Positions 1 to 20,365 of a stretch of DNA of 61,723 nucleotides are shown piece by piece. The DNA is from Nitrospirae bacterium CG2_30_53_67 (GTDB taxonomy: Bacteria > CG2-30-53-67), in assembly GCA_001873285.1 (NCBI GenBank), contig MNYV01000076.1, forward strand, positions 1 through 61,723. The letters run 5' to 3'. How positions within the stretch are numbered: position 1 is the stretch's first letter; each line of letters opens with the position of its first letter. The notes beneath the pieces were generated by a model. It was not told the DNA's origin and ran no database searches. It saw nothing but the letters and a program-made list of their open reading frames with translations. The position numbers and the translations under genes are program-made.

Positions 1-639
1 CCCTTCATCCACGAGGGCCACAATCACCGATGAAGACCCGGTTGCTTGATCCCAGGCCTCCGGGGCGTCGATATCCGCGTCCACGGTCCCTCCGTTATCC
101 CCTGTGTTCTGGAGGCCCCACTGGCTCGAAAAGGAAGCATCATTCGGAACGGCTGTGGTATGAACGATGAAGTTGGGTTCGCTGAACTTCACTTCAGGAA
201 TCCCTTTTAACATCTTTACCGCATCTTCCACCTTGAGGGTATCAGGAATCTTGACCCGGCAGAGATTTGCCGCATTCAGAACCTCCGCCACATACATACC
301 GGATCCGTTCAGAAGACCCGCGATCTTGTCTCTCCCTATCTGCTGAGAAAACTGGACCAGGATTTCATGATCCACATACGGTTTATCTTTGGATGGATCT
401 GTCAGCCCGTTCTGGCCCCGTGCCGTGACCCGCTTCCCATCCTCTGCAGACGAATAGGATACGTCCCTGGCCGCCTCTGAATCCATGGCTTGGCCGGGGA
501 GAGGGGGTCCCGCAATCATCGGTCCCTTGATCACCGGTTCATATTTTTGCTTTAACGGCTCACCGAGTACGGTAACAAAAACAAGCAACGCGATGAAAAC
601 TAAGAGAAACAATCTAGTATTTTTAATTTTTTTATCCAT
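1..639 (-). CDS. Subtilisin-like serine protease (peptidase S8), N-terminal part; gene runs off the left edge
   Basis: Own translation of the minus strand; not in the ORF track because there is no in-window stop. MDKKIKNTRLFLLVFIALLVFV looks like a signal peptide. HEILVQF...VKFSEPNFIV is I9-propeptide-like. SQWGLQNTG..DADIDAPEAWD..VIVALVDEG is the subtilase Asp-box region. ATG at 637-639 is preceded by GAGGGG. Confidence 0.75.
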   Translation of the reverse strand, partial: MDKKIKNTRLFLLVFIALLVFVTVLGEPLKQKYEPVIKGPMIAGPPLPGQAMDSEAARDVSYSSAEDGKRVTARGQNGLTDPSKDKPYVDHEILVQFSQQIGRDKIAGLLNGSGMYVAEVLNAANLCRVKIPDTLKVEDAVKMLKGIPEVKFSEPNFIVHTTAVPNDASFSSQWGLQNTGDNGGTVDADIDAPEAWDQATGSSSVIVALVDEG

Positions 640-654
640 AAACCCCTCAACAAT

Positions 655-693
655 AAAAAAAGCCGAACCTCTAAAGGCAAAGAAGGTTCGGCT
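655..693 (-). terminator. Intrinsic terminator hairpin, likely expression platform of the upstream riboswitch
   Basis: Minus-strand RNA reads AGCCGAACC-15 nt loop-GGUUCGGCU followed by UUUUUU. It ends 15 nt before the protease ATG and lies 25 nt downstream of the aptamer. Confidence 0.6.
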
Positions 694-718
694 TTCTTAA
701 AAAAATAGCTTTTAAAAA

Positions 719-806
719 CCTAACTTCGGCAGCCCCTCCACCCCGCACTTACGGGGCAGGCAGCTTTGCGCCTCACCCTCGCGGATGATTTGCCTTTTTC
801 GGTTAG
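719..806 (-). promoter_or_regulatory. c-di-GMP-I (GEMM-I) riboswitch aptamer
   Basis: Minus-strand RNA: CUAACCGAAAAAGGCAAAUCAUCCGCGAGGGUGAGGCGCAAAGCUGCCUGCCCCGUAAGUGCGGGGUGGAGGGGCUGCCGAAGUUAGG. It carries GGCAAA, a GNRA (GCGA)-capped helix CAUCC/GGGUG, the CGCAAAGC junction and the closing helix CUAAC/GUUAG. From memory this parallels V. cholerae Vc2: GGGCAAACCAUUCGAAAGAGUGGGACGCAAAGCC. Confidence 0.8.
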
Positions 807-9153: not shown

Positions 9154-11244
9154 TTATTTTTCTTCTTGATTCATCGAACGTTTTTCAGGCTTCCTGAAGA
9201 GACTGAGGCGGTTTTTCCCTGAAGCCTTGGCGCGATATAGGGCTTTATCCGCAGCGTCTATCAAGCTCTTGATGTTCCTGGCATCTTCCGGATAGGTAGC
9301 CAGACCCGCACTGATGGTAAAATTTCCGATCGGCTGGTCTTCTTCGTAAGGAAAATAAAATTTTTCCACCTCTTTCAGGAGTCTTTCACCAATGACCACG
9401 GCCTCGCGTTTGGATGTCTGCGGGAGGACAACCGTAAACTCTTCACCTCCGTATCTTGCTACAAAATCAATATTACGGACCGTCTCCCGTATCACGGCTG
9501 CAACACTACGAAGCGCCTCATCGCCGGCCAGATGTCCATGATGATCATTGTACCATTTAAAATCATCCACATCGATCATCATCAGAGAGAGGGGATAACT
9601 ATGCCGCTGTGCCCTGGCGATCTCCTCCGTGGTCCTCTCAAAGAAATAGCGCCTGTTCAGCAGGTTGGTCAGATGATCCGTAATCAAGACCTGCTCCATC
9701 TCCTTGGACCTCTGATAAAGCTGAGTACGCTCCAGGGCTATGGCCACCTGGGAGGCGAATATCCTGACGATTTTGAGATCATCCTCATTGAAAATTTCCC
9801 CGGTGATCTTATCCGAGATGTTCAAAACACCGATGGGGCGGTCATTCATGATCAAGGGGATACTGATGAAGGATTTGGTCTTGTATTTCATTTTCTTTTT
9901 CCGCTTTACCCTCAAATCCTTTTCAATATCCTCCACCAGGAGCGGTTCCCCTTTCTCGACGACCCTGCCTGCTATGCCCTCTCCCACTTTGATGTGCAGG
10001 TTGCGGATGACGTTCTCCGGCATCCCTTTGCAGGCCTTGATGGTCAGTTCCCTGGATGCCTCATCCAGTATCATCAGCGATGCCTGTTCCGCCTTGACGA
10101 TTTCCGTGGACTTGTTCAGAATCAGATGGAAGAGCTCGTTTAATTCGCGTGTCTCACCCACCTCCGTCGTCAGCATCCCTAGGTTCGTGATATCCAGAAT
10201 CCGGTTTTTAAGCCTGATTCTGAGCTCCACATTCTGGATGGCCATGGCCGCTTGATCACAAAAGGCATGGATCATCCGGACGTTATTCTCAGAAAGTCCG
10301 GTATTCACGATGCAGATCAATCCTCTGACCTTCTGGCCCAGATAGATGGGGAAGAGATAAACCGAATGGACCTTTTCGTTAAATACCGATTTCTCGATCT
10401 GAATTCTTTCGCTGGTATACACGGGTTTGTGTTCCTTGAGGATTTGACTGACAAGGCCGTTTTGGATGCCGGGGTTGAAGGATTGGAGTCCCAATTCTTC
10501 TGCCCCGCAATAAGACTGGGTGATGAAATGCTTTCCCGATGGATCGAGAAGAACCAGAGAACACCCCGTCAGATCAAAGAGAATAGAGAGTGAATTGAGG
10601 ATCAGCCCGAAGAGTTCATGACTGTCCATGACCAGGTTGAGATCGTTTCCCAGGTGAAAGAGGCTGAAAAGTTTTGAGAAGTTCCGGCCGAAGTTCTGCG
10701 TCTGTCTGTAGGAGTCCGTCAGGGTCTGCCCCACAGAGGTTAAATAAGTTACGGCATTCTGAACCTCCCTAAACTTCCCTATCCTGAGTTCTCCGATCGC
10801 CTTGAAGAGTTGATCATGATTCAACCCGCATTCCGCCGCCAAGGCCATATACTTTGAAGAAACCGGCGCATCTGTGCATATCTTCCCACCGAAGATGGCG
10901 CCGATCACCTGTTGATCGGCCTTTAAAGGAATCGTGAAACAGAGAAGTCCGGCATAACAGATGAAGGTTACGGGCTCCCCGTCCCGAAGTGAACGGGCAA
11001 TCCGCAGCCCGCATTGCGATCTGCACCTTTGAAGCCCCTTTCCCGTGCCCCGGATCAGCCGGCACAGGTAACGTTCCTCATATGACCTGCCAAGTACCGC
11101 CCCATCGGACCCCACACATTTGATCGTCAAACCTGACAAGCGGGCGAAACCAGCCATAGACCTCTGCCATGAATCCGAAATCAGCAGTTTCCTGAAGTCT
11201 TTTTGTTCAGAAGGTTTCATGATATAACCATCCTGTCTTGACAA
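9154..11244 (-). CDS. Diguanylate cyclase with PocR-like sensor and GAF domains (PocR-GAF-GAF-GGDEF)
   Basis: 696 aa with a Cys-containing PocR-like N-terminus, two GAF-like segments and a C-terminal GGDEF domain. The active site is RYGGEEF and an RxxD I-site (RNID) lies 5 residues upstream. Confidence 0.85.
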   Translation of the reverse strand: MSRQDGYIMKPSEQKDFRKLLISDSWQRSMAGFARLSGLTIKCVGSDGAVLGRSYEERYLCRLIRGTGKGLQRCRSQCGLRIARSLRDGEPVTFICYAGLLCFTIPLKADQQVIGAIFGGKICTDAPVSSKYMALAAECGLNHDQLFKAIGELRIGKFREVQNAVTYLTSVGQTLTDSYRQTQNFGRNFSKLFSLFHLGNDLNLVMDSHELFGLILNSLSILFDLTGCSLVLLDPSGKHFITQSYCGAEELGLQSFNPGIQNGLVSQILKEHKPVYTSERIQIEKSVFNEKVHSVYLFPIYLGQKVRGLICIVNTGLSENNVRMIHAFCDQAAMAIQNVELRIRLKNRILDITNLGMLTTEVGETRELNELFHLILNKSTEIVKAEQASLMILDEASRELTIKACKGMPENVIRNLHIKVGEGIAGRVVEKGEPLLVEDIEKDLRVKRKKKMKYKTKSFISIPLIMNDRPIGVLNISDKITGEIFNEDDLKIVRIFASQVAIALERTQLYQRSKEMEQVLITDHLTNLLNRRYFFERTTEEIARAQRHSYPLSLMMIDVDDFKWYNDHHGHLAGDEALRSVAAVIRETVRNIDFVARYGGEEFTVVLPQTSKREAVVIGERLLKEVEKFYFPYEEDQPIGNFTISAGLATYPEDARNIKSLIDAADKALYRAKASGKNRLSLFRKPEKRSMNQEEK

Positions 11245-17141: not shown

Positions 17142-18871
17142 GCGATGTCGGGACGGACCGATGCAGGATGATGATATGGCTTTTCCTCGAGCATTTTTCT
17201 CTTGATGCCTTTGATCCGGTTGTTACGGAATGCCTGGATGAAGGCCTCGCAGACCTTGGGATCGAACCTCGTACCGGCCCAGGATTTGATCAGTTCCATC
17301 ACCTCTTCCTCGTCGGTCGCCACCTGGTAAGGTCTGTCGGATGTCATGGCATCAAAAGTGTCCGCCACGGCGATAATCCGGGCCGGCAACGGGATCTCCT
17401 CACCGCGGATCCCATCGGGATAACCCTCCCCATCGTATCGTTCGTGATGGTGGCGCATGGATGGAATGATCTTTTGGAGCTGTTTGATGGGCGCCATGAT
17501 ATTGGCCCCCTTGCCGGGATGCTGTTTGATCAGATTATACTCGGCCTTGCTCAGGCCGCTCGGCTTTCTCAGAATGCTGTCGTCGATCCCGATCTTGCCG
17601 ATATCATGGAGCAGGGCGGCAATATGGAGGATTTCTCTCGTCTTTAAATCCAGCTTCATTTCATCCGCTATGACCAGACTGTATTCCGTGACCCTCTCCG
17701 AGTGGCCGCGCGTGTAAGGATCCCTTTCGTCGATGGCTGCGGCAAGCGATGAAATCGCGCTCATGAACAGCCGCCTCATGTTCTTGTCATACAAGTCCAG
17801 CTGCTTAACCATGTAATTGAAGGTTTCGGCCAGCTGCCCGATCTCATTTTTTGCGCGTACGGTAATCTTTTCCTTGAAGTTTCCCTGGGCAATGACTAAT
17901 GCGCTCTTTGTAAAATTGATGATGGGGACACTGATCTTCCTGGCAAAAAAGATACCGATCCCGCAGACCAGGATGCCGGTGATGCCCCCCCAGACCAGGA
18001 TCTGCCGCTTCATCTCGGCCACCATGGTATAGGCATCCACACGGGGTTCCTGCACGACCACGCCCCATCCTTCAAAATCCAACGGCGCATAAGCTCCAAG
18101 CATTTCTTTCCCATTTTTGTCCGCAAAGGGGATGGCCCCTCCGGTTTTTCCCAAGGAAAGATACTTCCCGACGATCTCCACGTCCTTCATGTTTTCCTGC
18201 CGGAGAACCCCGGGACGATCCTTGCCGGCGATCAGACGGCCCAGACGGTCTATCAGATAGGCTTCACCGGACTGCCGGAAGGAGACCTTGTCCACGATCT
18301 CCCATATCTTATCCATGGACATGTCGGCAAGGAGGATCCCGGTCATGTTGTTTTCCTGAAAGACGGGAAGACCGATGGTGACGATGGCGGTTTTCTTCTC
18401 AGAAATACTCAGGGGATCGGCCACGAAGACATTCCCCTGCATGGATTGATCAAAGACCTGGTCCCGTATTTTTTTGCGTTCTTCCAAATAAAGCCCGCTC
18501 ATATCCGGCCGTACGACCTCGGCAATGGAGTTTCTCTGTGTGTCCAGCAGGGTGATGCTGATCAGATCCTTATATTCATCGAGGAAGAAGAACAGGAGCT
18601 GATATTTCTGGATATCCGAAAAGGATTGGGTCAGGGGGAGGAGCCGGGCGATGATCTCCAGTTTCTCGATGGTGTGCCTGAGGTGGCCGGAAACCTCGTC
18701 GGCGGTCTGCCTGGCCCGCTGGGCATGGGAATCCAAGAGGTCGTTTTCCAGGTATTCCTCATTGATCTTGACAAGATTTCTGTCGGATATGATCAGAGGC
18801 GCCAGGGAGATCATCAGCATCACGATGATTAACTGGAGCATCAATCGTCTTTTAGGCCTTATTTTTTGCAC
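17138..18871 (-). CDS. HD-GYP c-di-GMP phosphodiesterase with periplasmic Cache-like sensor and HAMP
   Basis: Two TM segments flank a periplasmic domain, followed by HAMP (IGQLAETFNYMV). HD-GYP motifs: HSERV, LLHDIGKIG, HHERYDGEGYPDG, DTFDAMTSDRPY. Confidence 0.85.
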   Translation of the reverse strand: MQKIRPKRRLMLQLIIVMLMISLAPLIISDRNLVKINEEYLENDLLDSHAQRARQTADEVSGHLRHTIEKLEIIARLLPLTQSFSDIQKYQLLFFFLDEYKDLISITLLDTQRNSIAEVVRPDMSGLYLEERKKIRDQVFDQSMQGNVFVADPLSISEKKTAIVTIGLPVFQENNMTGILLADMSMDKIWEIVDKVSFRQSGEAYLIDRLGRLIAGKDRPGVLRQENMKDVEIVGKYLSLGKTGGAIPFADKNGKEMLGAYAPLDFEGWGVVVQEPRVDAYTMVAEMKRQILVWGGITGILVCGIGIFFARKISVPIINFTKSALVIAQGNFKEKITVRAKNEIGQLAETFNYMVKQLDLYDKNMRRLFMSAISSLAAAIDERDPYTRGHSERVTEYSLVIADEMKLDLKTREILHIAALLHDIGKIGIDDSILRKPSGLSKAEYNLIKQHPGKGANIMAPIKQLQKIIPSMRHHHERYDGEGYPDGIRGEEIPLPARIIAVADTFDAMTSDRPYQVATDEEEVMELIKSWAGTRFDPKVCEAFIQAFRNNRIKGIKRKMLEEKPYHHPASVRPDIA

Positions 18872-20365
18872 CTATCCCTCCGGAATTTCCATGGACAGGG
18901 AATTCTTCTGCCTTCCGATCATAAAGACCGCGTTCCTTGTCCCTTCCTTGACCCGATACATGGACTGATCCGCCAGTTGGATCAGTTCGTTCTTATCCTT
19001 CACGTGGTTTGGGTAGGAGGCGATGCCGAAACTGGCCGTGAGGTGAAACGCCTCGCCTGTATCCGAATAAAACGTATACTCCTCCATGGTCTTCCTGAGG
19101 CGTTCAGAAGTGCCGAAGGCTGCTTCAGGCCCCGTCTCCGGCAGGACGGCGATGAACTCATCACCGCCATACCTGCAGATGACGTCCATGGGCCGGAGAT
19201 GATTCTTCAATATGGTCCCGATCTCCACCAGGAGCTGGCTCCCGACCAGATGTCCGAAACGATCGTTGACGCGCTTGAAATAATCAAGATCCAGGAAGAT
19301 CAGTGAAACCTGGGTATGGTACCGGTTTGCCCTTGAAATTTCGATATCAAGAGACTGATGCAGATATCTGAAGTTATAAAGCTGCGTCAATCCGTCGGTA
19401 ATGGCCAGCTCCGTCGCCTTCTTATAGAGGAGAGAGTTTTCAATCGCGATGGAAGCCTGGTCGACAAGGGTCAAAACAAGATCCAGGTCTTTCCGGTCAA
19501 AAGGCTTTCCATCAATCTTGTTGATGACCTCCAGAACGCCCAGGATCTTCCCCTTGCTGCGCAGCGGCACGCAGAGAATGGAACGCGTCTTAAAATCCAG
19601 GGAATCATCAATCTTATGGCAGAACCGTTTGTCCGTGGCGACGTCCTCCACAATGATGGGCTCACCATGAAGGGCCACCCATCCGGCGATCCCCTCCCCT
19701 ACCTTAAGCCGGAACCTCTTGATATCGTGTTTTTTCTCTCCCTCGGCCAATTCAAAGTAGAGTTCGTTCTTTTCCTCATCCAGCAGCAGCACGGAGCCGG
19801 CCTCGGCCTTGACCAGTTCATTGGTCTTTTCCATGATGATGTCGAGAATGCTTCCTGTGTCCAGTGTGGAAGTCAGGGCCTTGCCGACCTTGATGAAGTA
19901 GGAGAGTTCCCTGGTGGTTTGATCCCGTTCAGAGGTGGTGCGGATCAGATCTTCAAACTGCGCCTTGCGGTCCTCGGCCTTTCCAAGAGCAAAAATAAGC
20001 CTCTTGGCATGGATGGATAAAATGAGATAGTCGTCTATCTGTGTGATCTTCTGCTGAAAAATCGTTTCGAGATCGTCTTCGAACACCGCCAGGATCACCT
20101 GGGTCGCGGGATTCCCTTTCTTCAGGTCTTTGATCCGGTCCGTATCCCATGACGATTTCCCCACAATCAGAATGGAACCTGGTTCAGGTTGAGGGCCTTG
20201 GTTGCGGCATACCAGCGGATCGAATCTGGACCCCTGCATGAAACCCAGCAAGGCATCCTCTTCCTGACGGTTAAGACCGTGCAGATAGACCCGAACGTTT
20301 TTATTCATGGTACCGTCTTTCCTAAAGAATGATCCCGATCCCGGCTGACCTGTCTGCCGTCGCAC
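18872..20365 (-). CDS. Diguanylate cyclase (receiver-like N-terminus, GAF, GGDEF)
   Basis: GAF segment (GIAGWVALHGEPIIVEDV). GGDEF domain with RYGGDEF and an RxxD I-site (RPMD). Confidence 0.85.
   Translation of the reverse strand: MRRQTGQPGSGSFFRKDGTMNKNVRVYLHGLNRQEEDALLGFMQGSRFDPLVCRNQGPQPEPGSILIVGKSSWDTDRIKDLKKGNPATQVILAVFEDDLETIFQQKITQIDDYLILSIHAKRLIFALGKAEDRKAQFEDLIRTTSERDQTTRELSYFIKVGKALTSTLDTGSILDIIMEKTNELVKAEAGSVLLLDEEKNELYFELAEGEKKHDIKRFRLKVGEGIAGWVALHGEPIIVEDVATDKRFCHKIDDSLDFKTRSILCVPLRSKGKILGVLEVINKIDGKPFDRKDLDLVLTLVDQASIAIENSLLYKKATELAITDGLTQLYNFRYLHQSLDIEISRANRYHTQVSLIFLDLDYFKRVNDRFGHLVGSQLLVEIGTILKNHLRPMDVICRYGGDEFIAVLPETGPEAAFGTSERLRKTMEEYTFYSDTGEAFHLTASFGIASYPNHVKDKNELIQLADQSMYRVKEGTRNAVFMIGRQKNSLSMEIPEG

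Follow-up and report, generated by a model that had tools for sequence, protein, structure and literature searches.

The leader of a subtilase gene from an uncultured Nitrospirota bacterium contains an aptamer for the second messenger cyclic di-GMP (c-di-GMP), and this class I (GEMM-I, c-di-GMP-I) riboswitch very probably controls the protease gene. The best explanation overall, which we hold with reasonable confidence, is that a canonical GEMM-I aptamer would act as transcriptional OFF switch by means of an antiterminator that invades the loop of the downstream terminator. The element lies on the minus strand of contig MNYV01000076.1 from Nitrospirae bacterium CG2_30_53_67 (assembly GCA_001873285.1), which is analysed over its full length of 61,723 nucleotides (nt) and is called the window in the following; the window is an entire contig of a genome of 2.37 Mb that is 95% complete. 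The organism is present in many groundwater and aquifer metagenomes (DNA runs).

A class I aptamer with a canonical predicted pocket

Infernal finds the element with the GEMM-I model RF01051 at 65.2 bits (E 1.4e-12), covering the full model from position 1 to 87, the gathering score being 35 bits. This search had been named as a check in a sequence-only reading of the same DNA, and the features on which that reading had based its assignment, i.e. GGCAAA, the hairpin CAUCC-GCGA-GGGUG, the junction and the closing helix CUAAC/GUUAG, can each be located on the minus strand (Table 1). All three helices, P1, P2 and P3, form when the 91-nt aptamer is folded in isolation. Moreover, they are maintained in a comparison set of nine related leaders from five genera, drawn from a family of nine genomes (G000 is the window's own): 95.6% of the helix cells are paired, slid-partner controls reach 32-50%, and compensatory (two-sided) changes, found at four pairs, occur in P1, P2 and P3. 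GEMM-I matches are common in this family, with 4-11 per genome in all eight other members.

By the Rfam alignment and the Vc2 sequence, G794, A767 and C729 presumably correspond to G20, A47 and C92 of the prototype Vc2, and these positions are G, A and C, respectively, in 9/9 leaders. In Vc2, G20, A47 and C92 contact c-di-GMP (PMC4744006). Since these contacts are invariant in the nine leaders, we regard the pocket as canonical, i.e. as neither that of the GGC variant discussed below nor the cGAMP type with A20. The riboswitch for 3'3'-cyclic GMP-AMP (3'3'-cGAMP; GEMM-Ib, Geobacter) has the same scaffold as the window RNA, but carries an A at position 20, whereas G794 does not vary among the leaders. 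The sequence-only reading had pointed to a G located two positions upstream of the C in GCAAA and had predicted c-di-GMP rather than 3'3'-cGAMP as ligand; this G is G794, and the invariant G20/A47/C92 equivalents support the predicted preference. Thus, judged by its sequence, window 806-720 is a class I c-di-GMP riboswitch with a G/A/C pocket, and binding of c-di-GMP is predicted.

With Vc2 and the RF01051 family the window RNA shares the three-helix aptamer, a P2 capped by a GNRA tetraloop, a core of the GGCAAA and ACGCAAAGC type, the G20/A47/C92-type contacts and the position in a 5' leader. In the class, the P2 tetraloop docks into a receptor in P3 and an interhelical C44-G83 pair forms; of the nucleotides concerned, the GCGA tetraloop and C770, the equivalent of C44, are seen on the minus strand. 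The window RNA differs from the prototype in having a G at the A43-equivalent position, in using a long-looped intrinsic terminator as expression platform, and in its host, an uncultured groundwater Nitrospirota lineage.

Table 1. Features of the protease leader and c-di-GMP signalling genes in the window
Feature	Position	Strand	Basis or remark
Sigma-70-type promoter TTGACG-17 nt-TATAAT	983-955 (-35, 983-978; -10, 960-955)	minus	11/12 consensus positions
5' leader between putative start and aptamer, ~140 nt	948-807	minus	
AGGAGGU box	855-849	minus	conserved
Weak hairpin UUAGUU/AACUAA	819-803	minus	-2.3 kcal/mol; overlaps P1 5' strand
GEMM-I (c-di-GMP-I) aptamer	806-720	minus	RF01051, isolated fold, nine-leader comparison
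P1	806-800 with 728-720	minus	
P1 closing pairs CUAAC/GUUAG	806-802 with 724-720	minus	
Proposed antiterminator strand CGAAAAAGGCAAA	801-789	minus	CCGA + J1/2 + GGCAAA, 5' half of pocket
GGCAAA	794-789	minus	
P2	793-768	minus	GCGA tetraloop
P2 hairpin CAUCC-GCGA-GGGUG	787-774	minus	
Junction GGCGCAAAGC	772-763	minus	
P3	765-731	minus	
Ligand-contact equivalents	G794 (G20), A767 (A47), C729 (C92)	minus	
Linker between aptamer and terminator, U/A-rich	719-693	minus	sequence and fold
AAGAAA tract at linker 3' end	698-693	minus	can pair with U-tract, lengthening terminator helix
Intrinsic terminator (predicted)	692-655	minus	-22.8 kcal/mol, z -5.5
Terminator 5' arm GCCGAACCUU	692-683	minus	
Terminator loop CUUUGCCUUUA, 11 nt	682-672	minus	
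Terminator 3' arm GAGGUUCGGC	671-662	minus	
Terminator U7	661-655	minus	
Shine-Dalgarno-like GAGGGG	648-643	minus	3 nt before ATG; not covered by terminator
S8 subtilase gene, 5' part, 213 codons	639-1	minus	cut by contig end
GGDEF gene	9208-9681	minus	
HD-GYP gene	17252-17743	minus	
GGDEF gene	18932-19405	minus	

A conserved terminator follows the aptamer

On the minus strand the order of elements is promoter, aptamer, terminator, Shine-Dalgarno (SD) sequence and ATG, the whole protease leader comprising ~310 nt. By its hairpin (692-662) and the adjoining U7 the element behind the linker is an intrinsic (Rho-independent) terminator, at which transcription is predicted to end. The sequence-only reading had described a stem of 9 base pairs (bp) followed by U6; there are indeed nine Watson-Crick pairs, to which one G-U pair is added to give 10 bp, and the U-run has seven residues rather than six. 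The distance of the terminator from the start codon had been given correctly, as exactly 15 nt separate the last U (655) and the ATG (639). A consensus terminator scan did not pick up the hairpin, since its loop exceeds 8 nt. Translational control was considered for the window as well and rejected, the SD sequence lying outside every predicted alternative helix.

The arrangement of promoter, aptamer, terminator and protease gene is kept in 8/9 genomes of the family, and in seven of the eight other genomes (G001, G002, G003, G004, G005, G007 and G008) the GEMM-I element stands directly upstream of the orthologous protease (~1030-1100 amino acids, aa). The terminator arms CCGAACC/GGUUCGG are identical in 9/9 leaders, i.e. 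they show no covariation, while P1 and the linker drift between genera. The loops comprise 12-15 nt across the leaders (11 nt in the window fold), are U-rich and usually contain UUUG(C/U). Additionally, the terminator is present in one to three tandem copies: the window leader has a single copy and genera 3, 4 and 5 have two or three, as a 54-nt unit.

No CCGAACC/GGUUCGG hairpin with a U-rich loop is found in the nine family genomes other than behind these riboswitches. A scan of the genomes of all species for CCGAACC..GGTTCGG..TTTT has unrelated terminators from many phyla among the matches listed, so that the stem alone is not diagnostic and is informative only within the family. A clade-specific aptamer pattern gave no match in a metagenome scan.

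The same terminator also accompanies a paralogous copy of the riboswitch in G001 (G001:C47:19864-20020; L027 around 1495-1680), which, added to the eight protease leaders, makes up the comparison set of nine. The gene that follows this copy is not an ortholog of the protease, but encodes a secreted protein with a CxxCH haem-binding motif (CQGCH). In G002 (L069, G002:C105) a second terminator module, located ~120-200 nt after the aptamer, lacks the U-run and has been remodelled into an extended hairpin, GAACCUCAUUU...AAAUGAGGUU, by which the GAGG in front of the start codon is covered. It may thus have changed from a second terminator into a device for SD sequestration in that genome.

The 5' half of the pocket as candidate antiterminator

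The strand proposed as antiterminator consists of the CCGA of P1, the junction J1/2 and GGCAAA. Most of it, AAAGGCAAA (797-789), is perfectly complementary to UUUGCCUUU (681-673) within the terminator loop, and the aptamer CCGA is complementary to UCGG of the terminator 3' arm. In the window the duplex of pocket strand and loop has a calculated energy of -15.8 kcal/mol, which is equalled by 2% of loop shuffles. The pairing recurs in the relatives: in unconstrained minimum free energy (MFE) structures of transcripts truncated just ahead of the 3' arm, the loop is paired with the 5' core of the aptamer in 7/7 leaders, and when the 5' arm is blocked, the aptamer 5' strand is the partner of loop and 3' arm in 4/7. 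Even when the terminator is complete, the global MFE structure of G003 and G002 is that of the antiterminator. The loop shuffles keep the U-rich composition, making them conservative, and the fractions obtained are 0.025 for G000 (the window), 0.065 for G001, 0/200 for G007, 0.135 for G003, 0.255 for G004, 0.235 for G002 and 0.415 for the second copy of G001. Fisher combination of these values, one per genus, yields ~0.002.

Across the leaders the 5' pocket strand reads ACCGAxAAAGGCAAA(C). The only variable nucleotide, x, changes together with its predicted partner: the pair is A:U for genus 1, G:C for genus 2, U:A for genus 3 and C:G for both genus 4 and genus 5, and the matching partner is found in every tandem copy except T2 of G004. 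The invariance of the terminator arms would be expected as well if the 3' arm has to remain complementary to the CCGA of the aptamer, which does not vary. Conservation of this kind fits a loop and 3' arm that are constrained to pair with an invariant partner; a plain terminator needs no such conservation.

Based on these findings we propose the following course of events. In the absence of ligand the 5' half of the pocket, i.e. the P1 CCGA, the J1/2 adenines and GGCAAA, would stay largely single-stranded during transcription and could pair with the nascent terminator loop UUUGCCUUU and next with UCGG of the 3' arm, thereby keeping the GCCGAACC/GGUUCGGC stem open and allowing protease mRNA to be made. 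With c-di-GMP bound, the same nucleotides would be locked in P1, P2 and the pocket and the loop would be freed, the hairpin with its U7 would form and transcription would end 15 nt before the start codon. The direction of control follows from the composition of the strand: since it holds G20, the G21-C22 pairs and the 5' strand of P1, ligand binding would withdraw it from the terminator, leading to read-through without ligand and to termination with c-di-GMP. Thus, we consider it likely that the switch is OFF at high c-di-GMP, a point on which the sequence-only reading was silent, and we lean, somewhat less firmly, towards loop invasion as its antitermination mechanism. Ligand binding, the kinetic mechanism and the production of the protease at low c-di-GMP are all points that we infer from sequence.

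In the sister genera each duplicated or triplicated 54-nt module is complementary to the pocket strand, and one aptamer strand would probably be reused at each stop. We therefore offer as a tentative extension, which we think doubtful rather than likely, that one aptamer governs one to three tandem terminators, the free pocket strand invading each nascent loop in turn, being passed on by displacement once the polymerase has moved beyond a copy, and c-di-GMP being resampled at each stop. If this were true, such a multi-checkpoint platform would sharpen the response without extra aptamers.

Two further strands were considered as antiterminator, the aptamer 3' CCGAAG strand and the linker AGGUU, and were discarded, as their pairings are too short (5-7 bp, with bulges) and unconserved.

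Another orthologous GEMM-I group of the family (L011, L012, L015 and L016, i.e. G007:C201, G008:C272, G003:C17 and G005:C39) has a different terminator, in which the 5' arm (GCGUCC) and the aptamer core (GGACGC) are complementary. Since core and terminator arm oppose each other in this second group too, antitermination by a core strand may be a habit of the family. After the terminator these leaders contain a conserved hairpin, CCUCCCGAGAGAUGCCG...CGGCAUCUCUCCCUCC.

Several points weigh against an OFF switch operated by loop invasion. In 5/7 leaders, including the window, the terminator state is favoured over its competitor by 8-14 kcal/mol, so that the model has to rest on co-transcriptional kinetics. 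Taken singly, the second copy of G001 as well as G002, G003 and G004 are non-significant against composition-preserving loop shuffles, and U-rich loops pair easily with an A-rich strand. The terminator copies are homologous, i.e. the lineages are not fully independent, and RNAduplex, by taking the best pairing, flatters the table of x and its partners, most of all the A:U pair of genus 1. Moreover, a long-range helix around the folded P2 and P3 is an unusual antiterminator, and the window stretch is in no RNA-seq run searched. Finally, the GEMM-I riboswitch Bc1 of the Bacillus cereus group, which has a dual terminator, shows no net response to c-di-GMP, suggesting by analogy that a GEMM-I platform with two terminators can fail to respond (PMC11218506).

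Other modes of control

The riboswitch might also respond to c-di-GMP in the opposite direction, termination being the default state and the ligand preventing it, so that the protease would be made at high c-di-GMP. The full-length MFE structure of the window leader has the terminator, and in it the hairpin UUAGUU/AACUAA replaces P1, so that the terminated state could indeed be the default; GEMM-I ON switches exist, and the T1 terminator of Bc1 unfolds with c-di-GMP (PMC11218506). An ON switch would, however, require a terminator-invading sequence that is freed by the ligand, and none was found in the leader, as all terminator-complementary strands lie inside the ligand-bound core. The upstream hairpin, in turn, is weak (-2.3 kcal/mol) and its form is not conserved. 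We thus regard an ON switch as unlikely.

A slightly less probable alternative, also unlikely in our view, accepts the aptamer as real and takes the hairpin or hairpins to be a ligand-blind constitutive attenuator or an element of the mRNA 3' end or of mRNA stability. The complementarity of loop and pocket strand would in that case have arisen incidentally, from U-rich composition and common ancestry, in line with the lineages that singly fail the shuffle test and with the far greater stability of the terminator state in most leaders. Bc1 with its dual terminator is unresponsive to c-di-GMP in vitro and in vivo (PMC11218506), and a preprint reports that the Vc2 aptamer controls the stability of an upstream RNA and not termination (bioRxiv 10.1101/617340). 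A plain terminator, however, does not need strict conservation of its arms and of a 12-15-nt loop over five genera, and it gives no reason for partner changes that follow the variable pocket nucleotide x or for the confinement of this hairpin type to these leaders among the nine genomes.

The GGC-variant label

Default Rfam cmscan does not report RF01051 for the window, but names the element c-di-GMP-I-GGC (RF03167; 60.0 bits, window 724-803, minus strand), 1 bit above the gathering score of 59 bits. Likewise, the G001 ortholog (L038 2734-2811) is labelled RF03167 with 63.1 bits, its RF01051 score being 67.2 bits. The label arises because clan overlaps are resolved by E-value, although the bit score of RF01051 is higher. 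The overall fold and most of the sequence of RF03167 match the window RNA, and the score is just above the cut-off (60.0 vs 59). The RF03167 consensus, however, has a conserved G after ACGC (ACGC-G-AA), whereas the window RNA reads GGCGC-A-AAGC, i.e. it lacks the variant's G and has the canonical A, a mismatch that is marked in the alignment; the A stands at this variant-defining column in 9/9 leaders. The name GGC denotes the residues at positions 20, 47 and 92. It is very improbable that the element belongs to the c-di-GMP-I-GGC class with an altered pocket and perhaps a natural ligand other than c-di-GMP, for although RF03167 survives clan competition in the window and in the G001 ortholog, the window RNA and all eight relatives have A instead of the consensus G and RF01051 scores above RF03167 (65.2 vs 60.0 bits). 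By sequence comparison, the label on the window element is an artefact of clan competition, and as a practical warning it may be noted that automated Rfam annotation mislabels canonical-pocket GEMM-I RNAs of this Nitrospirota family.

Relation to known systems

GEMM-I riboswitches, their link to exported proteases and the presence of multiple terminators on one platform are already described. In Clostridioides difficile the secreted protease PPEP-1 (ZmpI, CD2830) is under the control of a class I OFF switch and is made at low c-di-GMP (PMC11477304). A class I aptamer and transcriptional OFF control of an exported protease, shown there, are thus what we propose for the window, but the targets differ: adhesins are known as substrates of PPEP-1, a small zinc metalloprotease, whereas the protease of the window, a subtilase, has ~1033 aa, TSP3 repeats and a C-terminal sorting-like tail. 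Our reading agrees with the known theme of surface-remodelling proteases that are made at low c-di-GMP, and a possible logic would be the production of the protease at low c-di-GMP, e.g. for surface remodelling or dispersal.

Bc1 resembles the sister genomes of the window in that a single aptamer precedes several intrinsic terminators, two in Bc1 and two or three in the sister genomes. The two terminators of Bc1, however, differ from each other and only T1 responds (PMC11218506), whereas the family repeats a single 54-nt module in tandem, every copy being complementary to one and the same strand of the aptamer. The tandem module with its pocket-complementary loops may serve as a compact natural system for the control of multiple terminators by a single aptamer. 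What is new is an aquifer Nitrospirota lineage among the hosts of GEMM-I and, if the anchoring discussed below is correct, a surface-anchored subtilase in the c-di-GMP regulon.

The protease gene

The part of the gene that lies in the window encodes a hydrophobic N-terminus (signal or membrane segment), a fervidolysin-type propeptide (PF22148, E 5.8e-10) and the start of the catalytic domain with VALVDEG. Window 1-237 overlaps with G000:C89:3-239, the two differing at 6 of 237 nt (97.5% identity), and on contig C89 the protease frame runs for another 899 aa, giving a whole protein of ~1033 aa; strain variation probably broke the assembly and split the gene over two contigs. The continuation matches Peptidase_S8 (PF00082, E 2.4e-55), and the S8 motifs VALVDEG, HGTEVAG and SGTSASTP are present, only the Asp motif and the propeptide being in the window itself.

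The C89 part also has TSP3_bac calcium-binding repeats and a choice-of-anchor U domain, right after which the C-terminus, encoded by the last ~60 codons (G000:C89; L216 ~2520-2699), reads GDSGGGGGGGGCSL and continues with a hydrophobic helix and the basic KRFRSRERVL. With its eight consecutive Gly and a Cys ahead of the helix, this tail looks like a Cys-containing sorting signal of the MYXO-CTERM or GlyGly-CTERM kind; none of the NCBIfam sorting-signal models matches it. With its choice-of-anchor U domain and this sorting-signal-like tail the protein is probably an exported S8 subtilase anchored to the cell surface. The sequence-only reading, which had called it a secreted subtilase, was thus right about the S8 family, whereas the protein looks surface-anchored rather than freely secreted.

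Promoter and upstream leader

The promoter is preceded by an A/T-rich tract, and TTGACG-N17-TATAAT is found in 9/9 leaders, the -10 element being TATACT in G004; it lies 150-178 nt before the aptamer core. Because of this conservation transcription probably starts ~140 nt before the aptamer. The intervening leader is poorly kept between genera, except for a UAUACAGAAAGAAU-like 5' start and the AGGAGG box. An Rfam search of the upstream leader up to E 10 gave chance-level matches and no family, single-sequence folds of the upstream leaders revealed no common structure, and a second aptamer in this region was dropped on account of these chance-level matches and the lack of a shared fold.

The SD-like AGGAGGU lies ~55 nt upstream of the aptamer in the window and at the equivalent place in the eight related leaders. 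In most leaders, as read from their sequences, it is followed by a very short open reading frame (ORF) of ~2-14 codons with variable sequence. The box could be a ribosome-binding stabiliser or belong to a mini-ORF.

c-di-GMP signalling genes

By its gene content c-di-GMP signalling is clearly present in the genome, where 13 matches to GGDEF and 16 to HD_5 (HD-GYP-type; in one fewer proteins) were counted. The two GGDEF genes and the HD-GYP gene of the window, which had been recognized in the sequence-only reading, belong to this genome-wide set and lie 8-19 kb from the riboswitch, so that their proximity adds little; an HD-GYP relic, also claimed there, was not found in the window with the Pfam models HD_5 or HD. 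The neighbouring cyclase and phosphodiesterase genes are not specifically linked to the riboswitch.

Further GEMM-I-like elements in the genome

Two sub-threshold GEMM-I-like elements were found on other contigs of G000. One of them (G000:C74:17889-18033, minus strand; L005 1501-1644; 30.9 bits with RF01051 and 43.1 bits with RF03167) precedes the gene for a large surface protein with PKD repeats; its P3 contains an insertion of ~70 nt, and an A stands at the G20-equivalent position (CAGAGCAAACC). An A at position 20 is the signature of cGAMP-type GEMM-Ib. The other (G000:C175:27215-27287, plus strand; L002 1502-1573; 31.8 and 38.9 bits, respectively) has a shortened P2 and is located ~100 nt upstream of a 418-aa ORF that by eye looks like a flavoprotein of the sulfide:quinone/NADH-dehydrogenase type, an uncommon target for such a riboswitch, should the element prove genuine.

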